A DNA stretch of 47,844 nt, filler included, from Sphacelaria rigidula (taxonomy: Eukaryota): the NCBI GenBank assembly GCA_964200075.2. It is 2 parts of 2 records of this genome, joined end to end, with 100 filler letters (N's around TTAATTAATTAA, not from the genome) between each part and the next. Parts side by side here need not be neighbours in the genome. Positions count along the whole stretch, not along the records: positions 1 to 23,878 come from CAXNAA020000241.1; 1 more part is not named here. One strand, given 5' to 3'. This document shows, piece after piece, positions 9,480 to 23,978 of this stretch (the first letter of the stretch is position 1; each line of letters opens with the position of its first letter). The notes beneath the pieces were generated by a model. That model was not told the DNA's origin, ran no database searches, and was given only the letters and a program-made list of their open reading frames with translations. The position numbers were made by a program, and so were the translations under genes.

Positions 9480-10660
9480 CTGTACATGATCTTACACGAC
9501 GTGCTTGTTGACTGACCGCGCATCATATCATCATATCTCGTGCATACCTCAGGGTGATCCATACACTGACCTGAATTGAAGTGCTGCTGCCGAATATATG
9601 CGTTCCAACAAAAGCTGAAGCAGGTACAACGAGGACCAGAAGAAGGGGAATAATAGCCATGGCCGCTGCCACAGGCACAAGCACCTTTACCCCGCCCATC
9701 AGCGTCCAGCTCGTGTATATCTAGACCCATACCCTATTCCACGTTCAGACATGTACAAAATATATGCCATTATCCAAACCTGACCCATGAAACTCGTCTC
9801 TCTGCTCTCCAGAACAAAAACTACACAGTTTTACTGATATTCCACGCCAACATGGAATTTTACAGCATTGCCTGTATTTTGGAATAAGGAACATACTGCC
9901 TAATGTCCAGCACATATGATCATAATGTAGTATATAGTAATATCTCCTTGTTCGAATCTCTTAGGTTTTGACCTTGTTGGGACTGGCGACCATCATCAAC
10001 TGCGGGTCTGAAATGTTCGTAAACAATATCCAGATTCACGTTTGCCTCTCTGACCACATGCTACAGAACCAATACTTGTATATTTGTCGGGCGCCTACTG
10101 TTGTATCGCGGGGGACAGATAGACACCCCGGGAAAGCTGGGTGCACAATAAATAGTGGTGATCTAGTGGATAGAACACAAAACATTTACAACCCGCTGCA
10201 GTTGCCCTGAGCAGGCATTTAAAAGAAACACTCCGCCTCCGTTTTCAAGAGCAGGACACACCCGGTTTTGGAGAGCAGTCACGCGAAGTGTCATCGACAA
10301 TGGCATCAGCTTCGCGGATAATGGGAGCGGGCCGCCGCGCCACCGTCCTTGGCAAACACGGCCTACGCACGCCTTCCTCGAGTAAGCTGTCATGTAACAT
10401 AACGTCGGTCCAAGTGGCACGGAGTTTCAGTGTCCTGGAGAGTAAAACAGACAAGCATTTGCTCTCGGAGTTTGTCGGCGTGCGTGGGCCTGTTGCAGAA
10501 GAGGTGGGTCACATGCCGTGTCCCAGTTTTGGTAGGGAACGGGGGGTGGTACGATCTCGAGGAGTGATCTGCTGATAGCCACTGACGCTCTGCTTCGTAA
10601 GGTTAAGGAGTTGTGTTATTATGTGCTGTTGTTATCTGATCATGCTCATTCCTGCTTCTT
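9480..10660 (-). mobile_element. Possible degenerate Ty1/copia LTR-PBS-gag remnant
   Basis: Minus strand ...CA followed by PBS-like GTGGCTATCAGC (10582-10571), then interrupted reading frames including a GRGKG Gly-rich stretch and a Cys/His-rich, knuckle-like stretch (9730-9560). Weak evidence. Confidence 0.3.
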
Positions 10661-12437
10661 GTCCTCGGTTCTCAAAATTTGCGGCATGTTGTTTTACTTG
10701 GTGTTAGTCTGCCCCCGCGATGGACGCACGCAAGCACAGGTTTCAGATTGAACATTGGATGTGTGTTGATGTTCGCGGGTGCTGCAACTCTAGGTCGTCG
10801 ACCCGTTGCAGTTCATTGCCATGGGGTGCTTCACGTAAAGAAGATTATCGTTCCATGCTCATGCACACTTCAGTTGCAATCGCGTTTTGTGCTGTATATC
10901 TGTCGTGATGTCCCGGAACAGCAAACATGAGCAGCATGTCCCGAGTCGCGAGCGGAAACAGAAGCCAACATGCGCATTTTCAAGAACGTCATTTTGCGCA
11001 GCCAGTGCAGCACTGAACCAATCATAGTGTTCGATGACTGTGGGTGATCCGGTCCTACACATCCAAACCCAAAGATCGCCCTGTTGAGGGTACTAATTTC
11101 GGCGATGCGTTGTTGTTTTTCAGAGCTGCACTCCTCAATCGCATGGTGGTTCGCTTGCGATCCCCAACCACCGCTGACATTGTGTCCTACGGGCAGTGCG
11201 GTGGGTTTTGTGTGGAATGTGAAAATACTCCTTCAAGGTGAACACTACGCTTGCATTTATTGTAGATTCGAGAGAAGAGAGGAGCGACTCGCCGCTCACA
11301 TGCGCCCCAGGCAGTAATCACACCAGCGCAGCACACGTCAATGTGTTAGCTGTGCGGTCCCCTACCGAACCACCCTTAAACTACACTCTACTCTCCTGAC
11401 ATGTACAGTAGTGCGGTAGCGTGTTTTTACCCGCCGTGCTGCCGAACGGAAGCAGCGTATTGTTCCTTTCAATACGTGAACATTGCCATGTACACTACTG
11501 TTGTGTTATACGAGTAATGCACCGACAGCACTTGCAAGGCTTCACGTGTTGAACAGGAAGTTGTCCGTTACGATCAGTACCACTTCACTGCACTTGCATG
11601 GAATGGTATCCATCGACTCGCTACGCAGCACAAACAACAACAGTACAAAACGTGTGTATTCTTTGATTTCTCCCAAATTAGCCGCGGCACCCCGAGGACG
11701 ATTCCCTACAGTAGGCGCACGATGGTGCGAAATGGCACCAGATCGTGAAATGTAGCTCGGCTTTGGATCTCCAAAGATACTCCATCGATTGCAGGATTTA
11801 TAGGCGAAGACTGCCTAACAAAATCAACAGCCGCCCCGCGGCGAACATGAAGCGAATCATGTCGCACATGTGTTGTTCTTCAAACGCGACAAACCGTCAT
11901 GGCATTGAATGTATAACGGTGTACAACATGGTTGACCGAGCATGGTGCGCTACAGCCGACAACGGTCGATCGGAATCTGCGCATCGAAGCGGTATTTCGC
12001 CCTGTTTTGGAGAAGCGGGTTTACATTCGTTCATCTTGTGATATCGGTGGCATCCCTCGGTGATCACTTTTCGTCAAAGTTTGGCGCTGTACCCACGCGT
12101 ACAGTACACCCCTCTATCGGGGTACGTTGTATTATCACTCCAGAAATATTTATCCGGGGGGATGCGAGTACATGTTAGAGAACTCAAAAGCTCATCACCC
12201 GGGGGTCATGAACGCCATTTCGTACGCTACTTACACGCGGAAGACTCGATGAGCATGCACCGTCGTTGTCCAGCCTTGCTGCAGCGCAGTTATGGTGGTA
12301 CTCTTAACTGGAGTTCAGTACGGGTCCGTTCCCACCTTCGTCAGTCCAATCTCAAGTTCTTCATTTTAACCCTCGAGCAGCGCACCCTCAACTGCAGTCC
12401 ACCAAACGTCGCATACGCCCGATTAAAGCTTGCACAG

Positions 12438-15400
12438 AGTACAGAGGCTACGTACTGCCCGTGCACCCGAAGACGTCGGTAAGATGAAAGCATACCCGCC
12501 GTCCACGGACTCCTCGGATTCCCTTAATCTTTGTTTTCGTGTCCTCGTTGGGTGGAGAACGACGTCTCGTGTATGATGTATTCCATTCCAAGAAATAACT
12601 CACCCCGATATTCATCATTTGATTTCTTCTCCACGCTGTTCTATTTTTTCGGCGCTTCGGTCGACTAACCCCGGTGTCAACTTGCAGACCTCGTGGAAGA
12701 AACGGCCTTTATTCCGCAGGCGGGAAGAGGGGGGGCAACCTAGCCACGATGGATTTTTCAGAACCGGCGCGGAGGCTGCCGACATGCTGTGAGTTTTTTT
12801 ATTCTGTTTTCGGACCGCATCCTACCCCGCACATTTTAGCATAGCCTTTCAGGTGTTTGAGCATAGCGGCGACACGCGTAGCGGTAACGGATGGCGCAAG
12901 CAATCCATTGTTATACCGGCATTACATGCATGCGACCTGTAGGCAACGAAAAAAAACGTTTTTGGTCGCGCCGAGTACAAAAAAAACGTTTTTTTCTTGT
13001 GTTTTTTAACGTGATGTGCAGTGAAGGCTCAGGCCGTCATCTTGCATCTACTTGTTTCTTGTTCCATTGCCGTCCTACGTTCTTGTGGTCATGATCCAGC
13101 CCTTGCCCAATCAATCCTCAGCTCTGAAAGTAATGGGCCCCGTACTTTCTCTTGCATAGTTGCGTGAAATGGCTTTTGAGAACATACTCTACTGCAAATA
13201 TTGTACATGTGTTTCGACACGCATCATACCTTGCAGGTATGCCGAGGCGGTTCGGCACGATCCTCACGACGGAATTTTCCTGGACACGGCAAAAGACGTT
13301 CTCGATGCCCTTGCTCCTGTCATCGACCGGTGGCCGCGTTACGCCTGGGTGGCCAAGCATCTCCTTGAACCAGAGCGCGTGAGTATGGAGTTTTACTCGA
13401 ATACTGGTCGGTAGCAGCGACCACGCTAAAGTCTAAAGTTTCGCGAAAAATTGACGTATTTACTTTATGAATGGTTTCACTTATTTCGGAGATCTGTGAG
13501 TGTTGACCCTTTGAACGCCCGGACCCGTGGTTAAACGGCTAACGCAGAGGTGTATGGGGTGGGGGCGGAGGAAGGGAGGGGGGAGCATTGACATGATTGT
13601 TCACGATGGAGAGACAACGCCTGAATAGAAAAGGCCGATGCCGTGTATATGCCGCACGTGAACGGTTGTGAGAGGTGAGCCGCGGCCAGCAGTAGATTCC
13701 CGTCTCGATACAGCGAGACAGCAGAAGTGACTGCGCCAGATGTGCGAGTTGCCACGTATGTACGAAGGGTTCGGCTGCAAAACATAGTCATGTGTGGCCA
13801 CAAAAGAAACGTGCGCCCTCCTTCCTCAACCGTGGGCCCAGGCTGTTCCACGCCCATGAGCCGCTACTTTGTTGGTTTGTAAGAGCCCTGCACAGCGTCC
13901 ATTTCCTAGTGGCAGTCATCTACTGTACACCTACGATAAATGTTCCCCAAAATTCTCGCGGAAGTGTCAACGGAGGCGATCTCTGAACAGAAGCGATGGG
14001 CGCCTAAAGGGTCAACTAAAGAGCGTGTTGCAAGCTGTTTCGAATAGGATCACTACAGTCGTTTTGTAAGGGTATGTCGAAACATGCGACAAGAAGTTGA
14101 CCAGACGCCTCACTTGTGCGGTGTGCAGGATTTTGCGATTGTGCTGCATTGTACTGTTGGTTGTTCTGCGGGCTCCCTTGGTCTCCTGCATCTGGTGTTA
14201 CCTTCGACTGAAACATGCTCGTTGCACCTGACTTGAATTGCAGGCCATGACTTTCCGCGTTGCTTGGCTGGACGATAAAGGAATCGTTCGCGTCAACCGC
14301 GGATACCGTTTCCAGTACTCGCGCTCCCTCGGCCCCTATGCGGTGAGAGGTCTCGAGCGTCGACGGTAAAGTTTTTTCGTGTGTTCTACTGAGTTGTCAG
14401 ATCTGACGTGCGATATCGTTTCCGTGTTGGAATCAAGCAATGAGTTAGCTGAGTAACTAGTACAGGCAGGGAAGGATTCATTGCATCAATTTTGGGGAGC
14501 ACTTCAGAGTCTACAAGCGTTTTTATAGGTATGCCCTCTTGTCCGTATGCGTACTGTCATCACGTGGTTCGCAATGCGCACGGCCTCCAATGCGCGTGGC
14601 TTTGTTTTGCGAATCTTCGTTGTTCCAGGGGCCTCTGCACTTCCACAAAGACCTGACGGCGGCGCACGTTAAGGCTCACGCGTTTGACCTGGTATTGAGC
14701 AACTCTCTGTCTGGCATTAAGGTTGGCGCCAGCGTCGGCGGGGCCGACTTCAACTCGCACGACAAGAGCGAGGCGGAGGTTCAGAGGTACGTATCGTCTC
14801 GGACATGGTCTTTGCGGTAATTGATGATGGCAGTTATGGCTTGCAGACCTGTTGGTTGGAGTTGTTGCATCACTTGCGCATGGTACAGGCGATGGTGATC
14901 ATGGCGGTGATGGGTGGAGACTATGATCATGGTTTATTCCTGTTGGATCACACGCACATGGTGATCGCAATGGGGCGCGTTTGCAGTTCATACCCGACAG
15001 TCGGTACTGTGATCGGAATTGTGGTGATGATGGACAGGATATCACGTGGCCACGATCATCGGGATGGCGACCGTATCACATGCGCACAGAGGGTAGCGGT
15101 GGAGATTAGCCGTCGATGATGAAAGTAAGAATACAAACCTAAGCGCCCTTCATTTCACCGTCCACATCGAGAAGTGATGGGTATCGGTATTTTTCCGCAA
15201 ACCCGCACTACTTCGACGATTGGCTTCCGTCAACTGCCAACCTATACAGCCTGTACTTCCCCTTCAAAGTTAGCTGACCAGAGCCAAAGCACTGCTTCAC
15301 ACCGCGGAAGACTCGACACCCGCGCATGGCGGCTTGTGAACTAAGGGAAAACATCGGACGTCTACCGTTCTCGCCTCGGTGCGACTTGACTTGCTTTTCT

Positions 15401-18400
15401 GTCATTACAGGTTTTGCCAGGCGTTCATGTCTGCCATGACCAAGCATATCGGACCGGAGATTGACTTCCCCTCCATGGGTTCATGCGTCGGTGGTCCGGA
15501 GATCGGATACCTCTACGGCCAGGTCAGAGTTGACTATGACCGTGGATCATGACTGGAGGGTTGGGATTACCGTATCAAGGGTATGGTTTCGGTGTTGGCC
15601 ACGAGACTCATGTGCCTCGTAGTACTAGATGCTCGCAAGACTCGATTAACGCGCCTGTATCGGTCACTGTTGTTGAAGCGCACCCCCTCCTTTCGAGCCT
15701 GGTCCGGCGAAAACCCGGCGTGCTCCGTCCCGGCTTTGTAGGGATGCGAGGTCAATGGTCTGATGACTATGGCATGCATGATCATGAGTACACCCCCCCC
15801 TTCACACCGCGGCATGTTGTTCAGTACAAGCGCATGAGCGTGGATGCGAGCCCGATAGGTCAGGGTCTCCTGTGGGGTGGCGCCGTGCCTCACCCGGAGT
15901 GCGCCGGCTACGGAGTGGTGTACTTTGCGGAGAAGGCTATGCGTGGCCGAGGAGAGTCCCTGAGGGGCAAGCGGTGCATCATTACGGGCAGCGGAAAGGT
16001 GGCGCTGTACGCTGCGGAGAAGCTGCTGGAGCTCGATGCTATCCCGGTTACGTTCAGCGACAGCAGCGGACACGTCTTCGAACCGAAGGTCAACACACTA
16101 AAATATCTTGACAACAGGTTGAATTTAGTGGTTACGTTGTCGTCGTGTTGACTGATACCGTTCCTTTTCACGTCCTTTGTTGCTGTACATGGTCGCAGAC
16201 AGTTTGCCCTGTTCGCCGACGTGAATGGTACTGGTTGATTGGATTAGTTCGGTGTCGCACGTCAACTGATCCCCTCCCCCGGGGATCCAGGGACCCAGAT
16301 GTGGTCACAAGTTTGACGTCCCCATGCTACACAGTGAACGAAATGGAAACACTACGTACTGTGAACCTATTCGAGCGAACATGCACCCTTTATGTGCTTG
16401 ACACTGGCGCGCAATTGGCAATATGTGAACACCCGTGGGTGTGCCTTCTACGGTGTTCCTTTACTTTTGTTTTCTCGGCGTGAAGCTGTAGTGTACTGTA
16501 CTGTAGTTGTTTGGTCATTCTTGGTCATTCATGAACCGTTTCAGCATGAAGCTTCAGGGCATTTGATGCCAGTCATCGTGTTTACAACGCACTGCACTGC
16601 TGAAGCACGCGCATGCTTGAACTTTTCCCCATCATCACCGTAGACTCACGGCTGGTGAAGCGGGGTTGTGAAATGCGGGAATCGTGACTGATATCTTGAC
16701 GCCATCCTTACATTGTCAACCGGTGGGTGCAGCTCTCCCATCGCTGATCAACGTTGTATTTCGCGGCGATAGGCCGTTCCGGGAACGCATGTCGCCGTTA
16801 AATCCGCCGAATCCGCCGCCACATGGGAAGAAATGTGGCGCGAGATACAACGTTGATCAGCGATTCCGGGATCGATTCCCCAGCCGAACCCAAGCGATGA
16901 ACAGTCTTTTGGAGCACCTCATCCTGCGCGGGCGCACGGTTTCTGCACGACGTTTACCTGTCATGAACACATGAAGTAAAAAAGCGCTGTCCAGCATAGG
17001 GGTGTATGTGCCGCAAGCAGACTCAATATGTGTCCTAGTTTTGTCCACTTGAAACCTTCACAATACGCCTCGCTTGTTCGTCGTCTAACCCGCGGTCACC
17101 CCCTCCCCAATTCCCGTTTGGCATGGTCAGGGCTTCGATGCGGAAAAGTTCAAGAAGGTCGTCAAGATCAAGGAGGAACGCGGCGCCAGAGTTGGCAGGT
17201 ATCTTCTCAATTTCTGCCACGCCCTCATAGCGTCAAATCCGCTACTTGGGTAGTACCGACGTCTGCCTTTCGTTGCCCACCTGTGTACTCGCTGGCATCA
17301 GTTTGTGCCCACATGTGCGTCCAGGATGAGGCTTGAAGGAAATGCTGCCTGCATCACCCTGGCCATGGCCCCAAGTGCCACGTGTTTGAGTTTTACTCTC
17401 ATAGTTCAAGGCTTGATAGTACGAGAAACAATACTCGTGTCGGCTTCCTTTCCTCTCCAAATCGATGTTTTTGATCGCAGTATCATCCATGTCATGCTTG
17501 TGCTATTTCTTTCAAAATACCCGCGGTCGAAAGATGTTCAGATTCTCGGGCAACCACCCACACCAGTCTTGATCCTCTGGTGCGGTGTACGCCACTGTTG
17601 TGGCGAACTGCAAGAAATACACGTACAGAAGCAATACAACAGAGTAGCGGGAACGACGAAGGGGGTAGCCAATTTAAAGGGAGGATAGAAATATGGACAG
17701 CATAGAAGTCAAAATAATGCTGAAGGCAATAAGAGGGAGGGAAGGCGAAAGACGAGAAAGAACACAACCAACAAGTCGAGACAAGTATCGGAATGTACAA
17801 GAACCAATGGAAAATGCCCATGTGACCAAGGGTCTGTCGAGAGAAACAAATCAGACGCGGAGCCCCCCTTCCCCCCCGTTCGAGAGGATAATTTTTCGAA
17901 AACTGTCATAATTTTGATGTTTTTTCTATTATTTTTGTTGATATTGTTGAAAACAAATAATCAACAAACTCTGGCAAAAACCGAAAAGTCTGGCGGGCTT
18001 CGCGAGGTTTGTATATTTGCTTCTGCTCCTTACCCGCCCTGTCCCGATGACCTCGGATGCCGGCAAAGCTCACACACATCTATGTACAATACACGAGCGC
18101 ACGGTAGCGGCAGCCTGTAGCCGAAGTAGCAACACTATCTCACGCCTCGCCAAATTTGGGCGGACTAGTGGTACGTAGTCGAGGCACACGACACGGAACA
18201 TGATCCCATAAATGTAATCATGGTGGGTAATGAGCTTGAAGGGGCGGTGTGTCCGTCATCTCAGGTCTCCGTGCAAAGGATCTCTGTACACGGCAGCTGA
18301 CCGCATCCGTCAACGCCTCGGCAAAACACTAGGGGATAGCAGGCTGGGTCCCCCCCCCCAAAAAAAAAAAAAACTCGAATTTTCGATTTTGGGGCCCACG

Positions 18401-21400
18401 TATCCCGAAATATTTTCTCGACAGACCCTTGATATGACGCGTACTGTGTGCACTCAGTGGATGGGAACAAGATCGGGGGTAGCAAAGTTCGGTACTGGTG
18501 CCGCTGATTTCCAGCATCACTGCACGAAATATATTTCTCGTCCACCCACCGTGTTTCGCGGCATATACCCTCACCCGTTGCCCATTGCTCCGCTTGATAT
18601 GTCATGCCATTTATGACTATCACCCAGGCGAAGTGGAACGGTCAGTCAAGTCTTGTTTGGGCTCGTCACCTCCCGTCGCAATATGTCGAGATTGAGCGAC
18701 TTGATAGTCGTCCCAATACACAGCCAAAGTAGTCGAACCACGCGTTTCGCGTCAACCACTTACACCGCGACCGCGACACCCCTCACTCCTACTCGTGTTT
18801 GACGCCAGATATCCCCCACTTCCATGTTTAATTTTTCTCTCTTGTTCTCTTCCCTCGTGTCAGATACATCGTCGCATCTCCTACCGCCAAGTACAACGAA
18901 CCAGCGTCCGTTTTCGACGCGCCTTGCGACGTGGCATTCCTGTGCGCTACCTCCGAGGAGCTCAAGCCGGAAGATGTGGAGAAGCTAGTGGCGGCTGGAT
19001 GCAAGACAGTCGTTGACGGCGCGTACCGCCCGGTGTCTACGGCTGCCGCGAAGGTGTGTGTGTGTGTGTGTGTGCGTGTGTGTGTGCGCGCGTGTGTGCC
19101 ATCTCATCTGCTCTGGACGCCAGTCTACACCTTCCGGTATATGTGGGCGCATCAGCCGGGATCTCACAGGTGGAAGATCAACACAGGAGTTTATTTTTTA
19201 TCTTGTTCTAGTACTCCACCTTCCTTCTGCAGTGCTTGTCTCCATATTTTTTCTCGAGAGAGATTCAGCGGTCCCTTTTACTCGTCAACCGTGAGATGGA
19301 ATTTCGTGTACCCACGACATATTCGCTCTTTTCTGTTGCCAAACGTGTGACGTCACCGAGATTCGAACCCACGACCCAATCATCAAAAGGTTTGCAGGTT
19401 ACCAACATAAGCCACCACGGCGAATGTGCGAGCCTGATTTTATTTCGTGCTGTATCGACATTGCAGCCACTTGAGTCGTACAGCCGGGCATTCATCTTAC
19501 ACTCGTGCTGTACTCACGTCACAGCCGCTTTTGATCCTTTGGCGCAGGTAGACCTTTTCATGGCCGTGCTTCTCTTGTTGTCCCTCTATCATGTTCGGTT
19601 CAAGGATTTCATACCAACGGACTGATGACATAGAAATCATGTGTTGTGCCACCGCCCTGTGCCGCAATCAGACGTTAAGCTGAACGCACGTATACCTTAA
19701 TATATATATATATATTATTTCATGCGGGTCCACAGCTTGCATTGCCCACTGGGACGATAGTTTGGTGGATCTAAAACCACACGTTTACCTCAGCTGGGTT
19801 AGGAAGCGTGTCTGCGACAGTGTTGGTGGTATAGTGATGGAGCTACAAAGCGACTCGCTGGCAAGACAGGAGTCAGGATGAAGCGGTGTGCGTCTCCCAT
19901 CGGTCAGAAAGGCTGACACGATGCTGGCGGATGATGTATCAAGTTATACACGCCACAAGCATGACACTCGTGGGGGTCGCTCGGTTACACCGGCCATTCA
20001 ATTTTCGGTGTTGGGTGAAACAACAGGTGGCCGTGGAGAGCGAAATAATACGTTATGTTATTGTGGTATTTGATATCAGAATCATACTGTTTCTGTTGGA
20101 GCAATATTTGAATTGGCCCTCATTTCTAGTCGTGAGGTCATATGACCCGAGTCACACCAAGAGGGGCTTGAAGAGTCGGGTGAAGGGAAAAGAACAGGAT
20201 GTTCTCCTGCGCACCCGTTTTATTCAACAAACATGGCAAACGAAACTGAAATGAACCCTTCACCTCCGTACGGCTGAAACGTTTATTACCGTTGGCACGG
20301 TATGTCTTGCCCTCAAGAAATACTGCTCAGATATCGGAACGGCTTTTTGAATGTGAAGACAACAACAACGACAACAACATGGAGTACCGCGTTGCGTTTG
20401 GCAGTTTGGATCCACCTTCCGTGTACCTTCGCTGTCCGTCAAGGGCTCGACCCAACCGTTGTGGTTTCATCGCATGATATCTTTACGCATCCGTTGCAGG
20501 CGCTAAAGAAAGCGGGGGTGTTCCACGTGCCTTACCGCGGCACTATGCTGGGCGCAGCCCTTGGCGGCGGGCGCCAGATGATCAAGAACCCCCTCCAGCC
20601 GGGGGAGACCATGGATGACCGCCTCGAGAGAAAGGTGCACAAATGCTCTTGGTGGCAGCTGTATGAATGAATTTAGTACGAGACCAACTCTTATGGAAGC
20701 CGTTAAAAAAGCAGTAAGAAGAAGAATTCAACGCCTTTTTTTGCCTGCTGCGCGTTTGAACGGGGACACGAGAAGCACTCTCATGGCTCTCATGGCATAA
20801 CATTGGAGTCGCATACATATAAGTTGGCGTGCCCTGGGAGTTGTGCACCTGTGCAACAGCACCCGAAGAAGACATAACGGCTGCCCAGCCATCACGTGAT
20901 TTTCGCAACTTTGCGTCGACAGCATTTTGCTCCCACGCCAATTCTGTACACACCGGACTCCAGGGGCAGTAGCGCAGCTCAGGCGATCTCCAGCGCAGAT
21001 CAAATCGTGTTCGTAGGATTCAAACGCAGTGCAGTACAGCGACAGCTACTGCATCGAAATGATGGTGTGGCCACGAAGCGTGTTTTCGGTTTTACATACG
21101 ACACAACGCATCCAATACACCGTAAAGATGAACGTTTTTGGCAGAGGCTCGACTTGTGTACCGACTGGGACACAACAACAGTACGACAGTGCACTCAATT
21201 CTCTCACCCCAGCGCAGATCAAACTGTCTTGGCAGGGTTCAGCCGCACCACACTACCGTGTCCAGTTACGGCACAGAAATGTGTGTCTGAGCACGAAGTG
21301 CCCTGTTCGTTGCGAGATACACAATCGACAAACACATGGCATCACCACCTTCGACAAAACAGCATTGCGTGCCGACTACAGTTTTATACAAAGCGGAACA

Positions 21401-22482
21401 CAATAGCACAGCTGCTCGGGCAATTCCAGCAGAGACCCAACACCTTTTGTAAGGTCCAACACACCACAGTACAGTGACAGCTGCAGCGCATGAGAGAGAC
21501 GTGACTGTGGGCTGTAGTACAGGTAAACATACAACGTCCCATATTCGAATTCTTCGCCTAATTTTGAACGGGTCCTCAAGCGTTCGAAACCGTCTCCCGT
21601 TTTTGAGCACCCGGCCGAGAGTTAGGACTCGTTTAAATTTTGGACATTGTTCCATCAAAGTGGTTTCAGTTATCAACCGTTCATAGCTTCAAATAAACAA
21701 ATTTTGAACGGCTCCCTTGAGAGTTGGTTTCAGACGTCATTATCAGCGTAAGTGTTGCATATCGATATTAGTGTAGTATCCTAGTGCTGCCCATAATACG
21801 AGACTGATCTCAGACTTCATCATCCGTTATGTGCTCATTGACAATCATCTCATCCTCATAAATGTTTGACCAACTTCCATGCGTGAGAAGGTATCCCCTG
21901 CAGTACTGTAGTCCCCATGAGCGATATAAAACCGTAATAGAATCATGACATTGTCATGCGGAAATATGCGACAAGGTCCGATCCACCCAACTATTTTGGA
22001 TCGTGTTTTGGCCAACAGTCGTGCCCACGTCGGTACGTTTTTCCGGTCCGATTTCGTCGCCGATCCCAACACATACCCTGTTTTTCTTCAAGTGAACAGG
22101 ATATCCTACGCTGTGCTGCACATCCTGGATAATACATGGCATTGTCAAAAATGTACTGCGTACGGTATGGAACCTACTATCTCTTGTAATATACGCAATA
22201 GTCGACTCTGTACGCAGTACAGTTTTCGACATGTTTTCTGTCGTCCAGGGCGTTCTGCGATGCGGTTTGCGGTCGTCTTGTGGTCGTTACGTCGGTGTTT
22301 CGAAGCCTCTCAAACTTCCTCTGTTCTTCGTTTTATTTTTTATTATTTAGATGGACGAGGTGTACGAGGTGTCGACGTCGATTGCTCGGGAATTCAACCT
22401 CCAAGGCAACCTGGACAAGGGGTGCGCCATCGCCGGCTTTCTGCGAGTGGGGCGGGCCATGATGGCGCACGGTGCCGTGTGA
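12438..22482 (+). CDS. NADP-glutamate dehydrogenase family (GdhA-like) protein, multi-exon, with non-canonical active-site residues; 5' exon(s) unresolved
   Basis: Exons: 12438-12478 (tentative), 12688-12788 (TSWKKRPLFRR...), 13237-13378 (...YAWVAKHLLEPER), 14244-14342 (AMTFRVAWLDDKGIVRVNRGYRFQYSRSLGPYA), 14629-14786 (GPLHFH...GGADFNSHDKSEAEVQR), 15411-15522 (FCQAFM...EIGYLYGQ), 15825-16088 (YKRM...GYGVVYF...ITGSGKVA...FSDSSG), 17131-17198, 18864-19053 (...PCDVAFLCAT...VVDGAYRP), 20500-20634, 22351-22482 (...IAGFLRVGRAMMAHGAV*). All introns are GT-AG with consistent phases and there are no internal stops. Confidence 0.93.
15683..15800 (-). mobile_element. Short G/C-run-bounded dispersed element, longest copy
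   Basis: Minus strand: (G)n-TGTACTCATGATCATGCATGCCATAGTCATCAGACCATTGACCTCGC...GGACCAGGCTCGAAAGGAGGGGG. Homologs at 22862, 23979, 24462, 25733 and 39626. Confidence 0.8.
17827..18431. mobile_element. Non-autonomous DNA transposon (P-element-like MITE)
   Basis: TIRs CAAGGGTCTGTCGAGA / TCTCGACAGACCCTTG; flanks ATGTGAC and ATATGAC form a 7-bp target-site duplication with one mismatch. Confidence 0.75.
19054..19424 (-). mobile_element. tRNA-headed SINE family 1, full-length copy
   Basis: Minus strand GGTGGCTTATGTTGG...GGTTCGAATC head, the shared family body, and an (AC)n tail abutting the GDH-like exon end at 19053. Confidence 0.85.
20915..21485. repeat. Degenerate tandem repeat, about 220-bp period, about 2.5-3 units
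   Basis: CCAGCGCAGATCAAA recurs at about 20990 and 21209, with a diverged third unit at about 21427 sharing CAGTACAG.GACAGCT. Confidence 0.55.
22123..22250. mobile_element. Diverged relative of the 951-1080 hairpin MITE
   Basis: TCCTGGA...GTCAAAAATGTACTGCGTAC...GTACGCAGTACA...GTCCAGGG; same size and motifs as 951-1080. Confidence 0.7.
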
Positions 22483-22861
22483 TGCAAGCCTGAAGACCAC
22501 CAACATACTCTTGGATTCGTCAGGCGTGGGTCTTCCCGTGTCTGGGATTATAGTCCCTCGAGGAGGCGTCTCGGGTTGAAACTTGGCGCGTGCTGTTTCA
22601 TTGTGCCGGTAGCTTCTCAACACGTGTAGAAAAGAAATTGACCGGAAAGCGTTGCTCTGCCAGGGGCGTTCGTGCGCTTCGCTTCTCTCCACAATTTTTG
22701 TGCGCGCCGTGTTGTTTGAGAGGTTGTGAAAGTTTCCTCGATAACTCGATGGTTGGCCTGTACATGTTTTTTTCGTGTTTTATTTTAGTTGTGAGATCGT
22801 CAATAGAGCAGGCACACGAAGGTTTGTGCGATGTTTGAACCGGTCTGGGTTGGGGCGGAAT

Positions 22862-22902
22862 GGGGCGGGAGGGTGTACTCATGATCATGCATGCCATAGT
22901 CT
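22862..22902 (+). repeat. Truncated G-run element copy
   Basis: GGGAGGGTGTACTCATGATCATGCATGCCATAGTC. Confidence 0.75.
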
Positions 22903-23225
22903 CTGGGACATGCTTCCACAGTACGTGGTGGTGGTGAAGAACACGCTGTCTGCATGACCCACGTAGGTTGGACTAGTAACGGTGGGAGTGACGGATGTAA
23001 TCCCACGGGGTGCTGTCACAGCCTGCTGTGCTCAAACTCTTCTCTTGCAGGTGCGCGTATATTTTAGAAGTGCTTCGTAGACACGTCGTGTGCATATTTA
23101 TTTCATATCGCTGCATGCCGATAGCTCGAGTGCTCGGTTCATGCATAGTGGTGGGAGGTATGCGTTCCCTGTGCAAATATGGTCGTTGCTTCGTGTTGCC
23201 GGGTGATGGACATGAGTCTCTGTGT

Positions 23226-23878: not shown

Positions 23879-23978
23879 NNNNNNNNNNNNNNNNNNNNNN
23901 NNNNNNNNNNNNNNNNNNNNNNTTAATTAATTAANNNNNNNNNNNNNNNNNNNNNNNNNNNNNNNNNNNNNNNNNNNN
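23879..23978. other. Assembly gap with artificial linker
   Basis: 44 N + TTAATTAATTAA (stops in all six frames) + 44 N, exactly 100 nt. Confidence 0.97.

Follow-up and report, generated by a model that had tools for sequence, protein, structure and literature searches.

A transcribed glutamate dehydrogenase homolog with a substituted active site in the brown alga Sphacelaria rigidula: a candidate pseudoenzyme from an ochrophyte clade

We analyzed a 47,844-nucleotide (nt) stretch of the Sphacelaria rigidula genome (assembly GCA_964200075.2), composed of two joined parts, the first of which (positions 1 to 23,878) comes from CAXNAA020000241.1, and which we call the window. On its plus strand, an 11-exon gene at 10300-22482 encodes a 534-residue homolog of glutamate dehydrogenase (GDH) that retains the fold and the nicotinamide adenine dinucleotide phosphate (NADP) fingerprint of the enzyme, while the catalytic and substrate-binding residues are replaced, as they are in a whole clade of ochrophyte relatives. 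Operationally, the protein would count as a pseudoenzyme, with selection judged at the protein level and inactivity predicted. On balance, we lean towards the view that the gene is functional and encodes a non-catalytic GDH-fold protein of mitochondria, which would bind NADP(H) or a like nucleotide and act as a sensor, regulator, or scaffold. GDH is one of the few routes joining ammonium to carbon skeletons, and algal transcriptome and metabolic-model papers routinely take "NADP-GDH" genes as that activity. If the clade is non-catalytic, that inference partly fails for brown algae and other ochrophytes.

Gene, transcript, and substituted active site

The exon map was obtained by walking along the plus strand with only GT/GC..AG introns allowed, and its translation matches letter for letter a protein record (P0004) titled "unnamed protein product [Sphacelaria rigidula]", which was also retrieved with 100% identity over the largest exon when that exon was translated and used as a protein query. 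All 10 introns are GT..AG in the exon walk, and the same introns are absent from transcript contigs. The preliminary description of this DNA placed an intact homolog at 14244-20634. Its claim of an intact frame with intact splice sites is borne out by the 1605-nt open reading frame (ORF), the introns, and the spliced contigs, and the motif coordinates it gave inside that range are correct, but the range covers only exons 4-10 of the gene. Likewise, the scaffold motifs that it listed (EPER, VNRGYR, EIGYLYGQYKR, and IAGFLRV) are all present, but EPER (exon 3) and IAGFLRV (exon 11) lie outside the range, and the Rossmann loop is indeed kept as GSGKVA.

Transcription was assessed by mapping four public runs on 9800-23200: three from one study that are labelled "RNA?" (X1-X3) and a DNA run (X7). 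In X1-X3, depth is zero over intron sequence, for example at 10694-12481, where X7 shows an even depth of ~28-31. Nine of the 10 annotated GT..AG joints are present in each of X1, X2, and X3, while X7 contains none of the 10 intron-removing joints. The tenth joint (19053/20500), not among the joint rows shown, adjoins a (GT)n repeat that is skipped in read mapping; it is implied by the length of the contigs, 2223 nt, which equals the 11-exon sum, and by the flanking contig coordinates. The repeat, a microsatellite at 19054-19102, starts exactly at the intron 9 donor. Contigs give no expression level, but fully spliced ones were recovered from three runs, so a mature mRNA with the annotated 11-exon structure exists and the gene is transcribed. 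The preliminary description had also raised the prospect of splicing that restores the lost lysines; no such alternative splice was seen in the contigs of X1-X3, from which rare isoforms could escape.

The protein matches 56 distinct GDH sequences in the PDB, the best being 3r3j (E value of 1.9e-95), and contains both PF02812 (ELFV_dehydrog_N, 2.3e-33) and PF00208 (ELFV_dehydrog, 1.2e-44) above the Pfam cut-offs. In an AlphaFold2 model built from 67 relatives, the mean predicted local distance difference test (pLDDT) score is 86, exceeding 90 in the core; residues 1-68 score below 50, as disordered regions do, and the N-terminal extension described below scores 65-79. The best Foldseek matches of the model are NADP-GDHs, with template modeling (TM) scores of up to 0.93 (5gud_A). 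By these sequence and model comparisons, the window protein falls in the Glu/Leu/Phe/Val dehydrogenase superfamily, where it lies nearest to the ~50-kDa NADP-GDHs. A complex prediction with two copies of residues 65-534 gave a score of 0.19 and a mark of 0.32, which weighs neither way.

The nearest known system is thus the hexameric ~50-kDa NADP-GDH (Enzyme Commission number EC 1.4.1.4), represented by Plasmodium falciparum GDH2 (3r3j), Corynebacterium glutamicum GDH (5gud and 5ijz), and Escherichia coli GDH (4fcc), to which the window protein is ~36% identical. Besides the two Pfam domains and the fold, the likeness extends to the domain-I beta-strands, the EIGYLYGQYKR helix, the GSGxxA turn, the Asp/Ser pair at positions P7 and P8, and a K/R/R triad. 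In contrast, the window protein carries replacements in the K89, K113, K125, D165, R205, N347, N373, and S380 columns (numbered here in the style of Clostridium symbiosum GDH, while residues such as Ala182 are numbered in the window protein) and additionally has a presequence of ~50 residues and a conserved extension of ~25 residues.

HMMER alignments to 3r3j, 5gud, and 5ijz place these replacements in seven motifs. Canonical GPYKGGLRF reads GPYAGPLHF in the window protein, FKNS reads LSNS, GGGKGG reads GASVGG, DVPAGD reads DFPSMG, R(A/T)EATG reads HPECAG, GANMP reads GAYRP, and P(S/G)KAANAGG reads PYRGTMLGA. The Ser of the GGV..S loop (S380 column) has become Gly469, and the Asn residues on the nicotinamide side (in GSGN, GANMP, and AANAGG) have become Lys330, Tyr437, and Met462, at columns that vary within the clade described below. 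The exon map and the alignments to solved GDHs confirm both the replaced motifs and their coordinates as first described, including the loss of K89, K113, K125, and D165. In C. symbiosum GDH, K89 and K113 bind the substrate carboxylates, while K125 and D165 are catalytic. The alignments show that GDH chemistry by the known mechanism would be impossible for the window protein, which has neither of the catalytic residues and none of the substrate-carboxylate ligands. Of the features of EC 1.4.1.4, it therefore lacks K125, D165, K89, K113, the loop Ser, and the nicotinamide-side residues, while it shows the NADP fingerprint (GSGKVA, Asp351, Ser352, and K374/R377/R380). On this sequence evidence, the protein does not belong under EC 1.4.1.4, whatever names the databases give its relatives.

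The ochrophyte clade that shares the substitutions

An alignment of 123 sequences comprises 44 with the K,K,K,D signature and 79 without it, which are the clade members; the canonical reference used below consists of 169 sequences chosen by that signature, all of which carry it. At the K89 column, lysine is found in 0 of 77 clade sequences (2 have gaps) and glutamate in 57 of 79. The K113 column has no lysine in 79 sequences, S or T in 58, and 8 different residues in total, and the K125 column, again with lysine in 0 of 79, has 7 different residues (V in 28, Y in 24, A in 16, and F in 8). Aspartate is equally absent from the D165 column (0/79), where 78 sequences have G and one has S. A four-column loss of this kind is not chance and, as the alignment has it, the loss of the active site is a family trait of the ochrophyte clade rather than private to the window gene.

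Orthologues with the same substitutions are found in several species of Ectocarpus and in Pylaiella, Undaria, Cladosiphon, Nemacystus, Discosporangium, Choristocarpus, and Phaeothamnion, full-length ones being available from at least 7 brown-algal genera and from the phaeothamniophyte Phaeothamnion. Ectocarpus siliculosus CBJ33582, "Glutamate dehydrogenase 2 (NADP-dependent)", is of the window-gene type and belongs to the 90%-identity cluster of an orthologue (P0009) that is 75% identical to the window protein. A full-length search also retrieved a second brown-algal paralogue with 52-53% identity, CBN74525 (P0303), "Glutamate dehydrogenase 1 (NADP-dependent)". Both Ectocarpus proteins are without the four residues, and their names assert an activity that their sequences do not support. 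Other homologues in the clade come from Tribonema, Chrysoparadoxa, Heterosigma, Nannochloropsis, Thalassiosira, Hydrurales, Ochromonas, Chromulina, and Epipyxis, so that diatoms, chrysophytes, eustigmatophytes, raphidophytes, and xanthophytes are covered. Many environmental sequences are included as well, and every named member is an ochrophyte alga. In addition, an exhaustive profile-free search of 1.84 billion cluster representatives returned 4950 relatives, and the key columns are non-canonical in many of the best 150 of these. The preliminary description, which proposed looking for such a clade among ochrophytes, did not recognize that the gene belongs to one or that brown algae have a second paralogue.

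We placed 43 rows in a quick IQ-TREE tree rooted on canonical GDHs, with support from the Shimodaira-Hasegawa-like approximate likelihood ratio test (SH-aLRT). All proteins with the N-terminal extension form one group (support of 100), and the ochrophyte clade is monophyletic (SH-aLRT of 100). The window lineage, consisting of brown algae and Phaeothamnion (99), has a diatom group as its sister (95). The "GDH1" type falls together with Tribonema and Chrysoparadoxa (99), and Heterosigma joins this group with weaker support (83). This topology indicates that the two brown-algal paralogues split before the divergence of diatoms and brown algae. Supports of 83-86 leave the deep branching among the three extension-bearing clades unsettled, and the overall topology recurs in broad terms in a 56-row tree. 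ORFs are uninterrupted in both brown-algal lineages. Identity across brown algae is 63-82% in the window lineage, which is 56-60% identical to Phaeothamnion, and 83-87% in the "GDH1" lineage.

Next to their presence in the clade, we considered how the replaced positions evolve. We took the 143 columns with at least 90% conservation across the 169 canonical GDHs and compared them with 67 clade sequences. The clade has kept 70 of these columns, switched 5 to another conserved residue, and let 68 become variable. K89 (to E, 0.75) and D165 (to G, 0.99) are among the switched columns, and the variable set includes the K113, K125, R93, Q110, R205, T209, GANMP, AANAGG, and Ser380 columns. Scored as mean pairwise identity, lost or switched columns reach 0.79 versus 0.82 for ordinary columns in the window lineage, 0.69 versus 0.71 in the "GDH1" type, 0.52 versus 0.69 in diatom-like and 0.45 versus 0.65 in chrysophyte-like sequences, and 0.31 versus 0.51 in the whole clade. 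The 70 retained columns score 0.88-0.96 throughout, and domain I keeps the columns in which canonical GDHs are conserved. That the lost columns are no more conserved than ordinary ones argues against a new, tightly constrained catalytic center in the pocket. Read in this way, the rate pattern is what one expects when an active site has been given up while its scaffold remains necessary. Together with the transcripts and the shared substitutions, the column-rate test supports the original proposal of a pseudoenzyme candidate in which the active site is lost on a conserved scaffold.

Land plants have ~637-residue proteins named "NADP-specific GDH-like" or "uncharacterized" (the P0129 cluster, with 209 members) that resemble the clade in having R at the K89, A at the K125, and E at the D165 column. 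They differ in falling on the canonical side of the tree, in retaining K113, GANMP, and most of the cofactor loop, and in having a long N-terminus unrelated to that of the window clade. These proteins look like a GDH derivative of independent origin that may be non-canonical too. Open-access PMC and bioRxiv yielded nothing relevant on the plant homologue At1g51720, and no prior description of the algal clade as non-catalytic was found in open-access PMC or bioRxiv main texts. In the text available from two diatom papers, "NADP-GDH" and "NAD-GDH" genes are treated as active enzymes (PMC4588885, PMC7408324), under gene numbers that may or may not fall in this clade.

Several relatives deserve mention in their own right. 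In a chrysophyte-rich sub-clade (P0309, P0311, P0314, P0329, P0335, P0337, P0344, P0357-P0362, and others), the third glycine of GSGxxA is replaced, giving GSNY, GSHY, GSQA, and similar turns, and Tyr or Phe occupies the K125 column, which suggests a further decay step or a different ligand. A sister clade (P0131, P0141, P0160, P0201, P0251, and P0271) has the same N-terminal extension with a conserved S-I-N-S-G upstream of it. Its key residues vary (K113, K125, and D165 are retained in P0160), and diatom sequences make up most of the Atlas cluster nearest to P0141. A diatom paper, in the portion available, reports that "GDH2" is phosphorylated at Ser-67, and a tie between this site and S-I-N-S-G would be speculative. 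Finally, the 920-residue P0256 contains a GDH-like domain in which the K89, K113, and D165 columns hold N, S, and G; the long N-terminal region ahead of this domain resembles, by eye, EF-hand and actin-bundling proteins.

Cofactor pocket, N-terminal extension, and possible functions

In the available text of a study of E. coli GDH, NADP specificity is attributed to the GSGxxA turn, the Asp at P7, the Ser at P8, and Lys286/Arg289/Arg292 (PMC12364357). From their equal i, i+3, i+6 spacing and the conservation of the columns, we infer that K374/R377/R380 of the window protein correspond to this triad. The clade has kept the P1 Gly in 66 of 67 sequences, the P6 Ala in 63, the P7 Asp351 and Gly354 in all 67, and Ser or Thr at P8 (Ser352) in 56. 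The triad is similarly retained, with Lys374 in 64/67, Arg377 in 67/67 (a position at which the 169 canonical sequences have 65 R and 62 K), and Arg380 in 60/67. There is also a new arginine, R383, which is present in 67/67 clade sequences at a position held by Glu, Thr, or Asp in canonical enzymes. No other part of the core is as clade-specific as the segment around R383, 373-389. The intact 2'-phosphate pocket indirectly supports a role in binding NADP(H).

The first 30 residues of the window protein contain no acidic and 6 basic residues and no hydrophobic run. The 60 full N-termini in the clade are likewise basic and Ser/Thr-rich without a signal-peptide-like hydrophobic run, most having 0 or 1 acidic residues in the first 30 and the longest hydrophobic run being 6. 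On N-terminal composition alone, the window protein is predicted to be imported into mitochondria. The extension that follows is absent from the 169 aligned canonical GDHs; its residues W71, P75, L76, F92, T94, G95, E97, and A98 are each at least 0.87 conserved in 67 clade sequences (W71 0.90, P75 0.93, and L76, F92, and G95 0.94). One protein, P0447, combines a similar extension with all four canonical motifs, so the extension is probably older than the catalytic loss. A different kind of N-terminus is seen in P0505 from Triparma, a canonical NADP-GDH that has a hydrophobic, signal-peptide-like N-terminus and may be plastid-targeted.

In the explanation we favor, the protein would be imported into mitochondria, retain a GDH-like assembly, and bind NADP(H) or a related 2'-phospho-adenine nucleotide without turnover. 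Its action would be non-catalytic, as a sensor of a nucleotide or of redox state or as a regulatory or scaffold protein, with the N-terminal extension and the 373-389 surface as putative new functional elements. A bolder version, which we offer tentatively and consider somewhat doubtful, is that every brown-algal "NADP-GDH" of types 1 and 2 and their ochrophyte homologues are ancient mitochondrial pseudoenzymes, which would have arisen from an extension-bearing canonical GDH, abandoned glutamate chemistry while retaining and strengthening the 2'-phospho-adenosine pocket, and come to serve as NADP(H) or redox sensors or regulators by way of the extension. If this were true, nitrogen-assimilation models and "GDH" expression markers built on these genes in diatoms, kelps, and related algae would be wrong. 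The clade also offers a clean, old example of a pseudoenzyme in which the substrate half has decayed, the cofactor-anchoring half has tightened, and an N-terminal element has been gained.

Several observations weigh against a non-catalytic nucleotide-binding protein. Within brown algae, the substituted pocket residues are 79% identical, and the window lineage has conserved His and Cys residues of its own (in HPEC and GPLHF), which may form a lineage-specific ligand or metal site. The third GSGxxA glycine is replaced by N, H, Q, or others in 23/67 sequences, and the Asn after this glycine has become Lys in 37 and Tyr in 13 of 67, so NADP(H) binding may be altered or not general across the clade. 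Furthermore, the roles given to the four lost residues are those of the C. symbiosum enzyme.

Some of these observations would fit a clade that has turned to new chemistry, as an NADP(H)-dependent oxidoreductase or other catalyst that acts on a different substrate with recruited cleft residues, which is the strongest alternative, although we judge it unlikely. Candidate residues can be named (Glu/Ala at the K89 column, His186, His295/Cys298, and Tyr437), and the clade retains the 2'-phosphate pocket together with most of the glycine-rich turn and shows directional, conserved switches (K89 to E in 57/79 and D165 to G in 78/79) besides the HPEC and GPLHF motifs conserved in the window lineage. 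However, the old catalytic and substrate columns are at or below background conservation in every sub-lineage (0.31 versus 0.51 clade-wide), the K113 and K125 columns hold as many as 8 and 7 residue types, the nicotinamide-side residues (the Asn of GSGN, GANMP, and AANAGG) are lost, and the third turn glycine is missing from 23/67 sequences.

The idea of an inactive GDH paralogue is already known from Thermus thermophilus, whose GdhA/GdhB heterohexamer (PDB 3aoe) includes GdhA, described in the accessible part of the source as an inactive yet retained regulatory subunit type (PMC9570180). A comparable role for the window protein, in a hetero-hexamer with a catalytic GDH, whose activity it would tune, or with the other dead paralogue, is in our estimate less likely again than new chemistry. 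In its favor are the retained domain-I columns and Heterosigma, where three proteins with all four motifs (P0449, P0451, and P0452) occur alongside a clade member (P0308). GdhA is bacterial, with a known partner and known activation by leucine, and belongs to another GDH subgroup, the 3aoe chains matching the window protein at E values of 1e-14 to 2e-21 and with 22% identity. Against such a role, the window protein is only ~40% identical to canonical GDHs, and the clade has a presequence and an extension, while the canonical Heterosigma enzyme has neither, which suggests different compartments. No brown-algal canonical GDH is among the best 120 matches of each of three protein searches, which is weak evidence; the third of these, with P0373 as the query and aimed at such an enzyme, shows no named brown alga in the best 120 of 8000 candidates and is uninformative.

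A decaying pseudogene or an annotation artefact is highly improbable: the catalytic residues are absent and the window lineage evolves ~2x faster than "GDH1" (63-82% versus 83-87% identity), but the 1605-nt ORF is intact over 11 exons with canonical splice sites, three runs yield fully spliced contigs, at least 7 brown-algal genera and Phaeothamnion have full-length orthologues, and the 70 scaffold columns stand at 0.95 identity. On the strength of the intact exons and the spliced contigs, we also rejected mis-splicing.

Feature map and surroundings of the gene

Table 1. Positions of the gene, its exons, and the substituted or retained motifs in the window
Feature	Position	Strand	Remarks
mRNA span	10096..22896	+	2223-nt contigs of X2 and X3; sum of 11 exons
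5' untranslated region	10096-10299	+	204 nt
Coding sequence	10300-22482	+	11 exons; 1605 nt, intact ORF
3' untranslated region	22483-22896	+	414 nt
Exon 1, residues 1-68	10300-10503	+	Start codon; basic, Ser/Thr-rich N-terminus; putative mitochondrial-type presequence
Exon 2, residues 69-101	12688-12788	+	Clade-specific N-terminal extension; joints 10503/12688 and 12788/13237 in contigs
W71-K-K-R-P75-L76-F-R	12694-12717	+	Exon 2; followed by F92-x-T-G-x-E-A
Exon 3, residues 102-149	13237-13378	+	N-terminal helices; EPER at end
Exon 4, residues 150-182	14244-14342	+	Conserved beta-strands FRVAWLDDKG..VNRGYR, then GPYA
Ala182 in place of K89	14340-14342	+	Exon 4; alignments to solved GDHs
Exon 5, residues 183-234	14629-14786	+	Pro184 for G91, His186 for R93
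Ser206 in place of K113	14698-14700	+	Exon 5
Val218 in place of catalytic K125	14734-14736	+	Exon 5
Exon 6, residues 235-272	15411-15522	+	DFPSMG at 15463-15480; EIGYLYGQ retained
Gly258 in place of D165	15478-15480	+	Exon 6
Exon 7, residues 273-360	15825-16088	+	HPECAG, GSGKVA, SDSSG
His295 (HPECAG) in place of R205	15891-15893	+	Exon 7
Glycine-rich turn GSGKVA	15987-16004	+	Exon 7
SDSSG with P7 Asp351 and P8 Ser352	16056-16070	+	Exon 7
Exon 8, residues 361-383 (split codon)	17131-17198	+	Basic triad of 2'-phosphate pocket; R383 codon begins
K374	17170-17172	+	Exon 8, triad
R377	17179-17181	+	Exon 8, triad
R380	17188-17190	+	Exon 8, triad
Exon 9, residues 383-446	18864-19053	+	Clade-specific YI(V/I)AS(T/P)TAK segment
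DGAYRP in place of GANMP		+	Exon 9; Tyr437 at 19024-19026
Exon 10, residues 447-491	20500-20634	+	Holds PYRGTMLGAALGG
PYRGTMLGAALGG in place of P-x-KAANAGGV..S	20530-20568	+	Exon 10
Exon 11, residues 492-534 and stop	22351-22482	+	C-terminal helices with IAGFLRV

Outside 10096-22896, the window has 177 other stop-to-stop ORFs of at least 85 residues, of which 62 were scanned without a match to any Pfam family, so the neighborhood gave no context for the gene. ARAGORN called no tRNAs in the whole window, and a T-arm-like stretch near 19330-19420 was accordingly rejected as a tRNA gene. Two 44-N runs are present at 23879-23922 and 23935-23978. The contig of P0004 is listed with a length of 23878, so the window appears to start where that contig does and to pass over a scaffold join at these runs.

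Three introns contain repeats. In intron 6, word depth is extremely high in each of the four runs at an element of ~100 nt (15694-15800). In the bin that contains it, 15611-16057, the depth climbs to 1.2-1.7e5 for the RNA-like runs and to 2e6 for the DNA run; loose ends and spurious joints are numerous, and the element looks like a highly repeated dispersed one that is also present in transcripts. Intron 7 contains an inverted repeat of 26 nt (16740-16765 and 16839-16864; 96% identity, with 73 nt between the arms) and intron 8 one of 19 nt (17827-17845 and 18413-18431; 95% identity, with 567 nt between the arms). Both pairs look like insertions of miniature inverted-repeat transposable elements or other transposons, and the sequence inside the 17827-18431 pair has a DNA depth of 250-1300x the local single-copy level.

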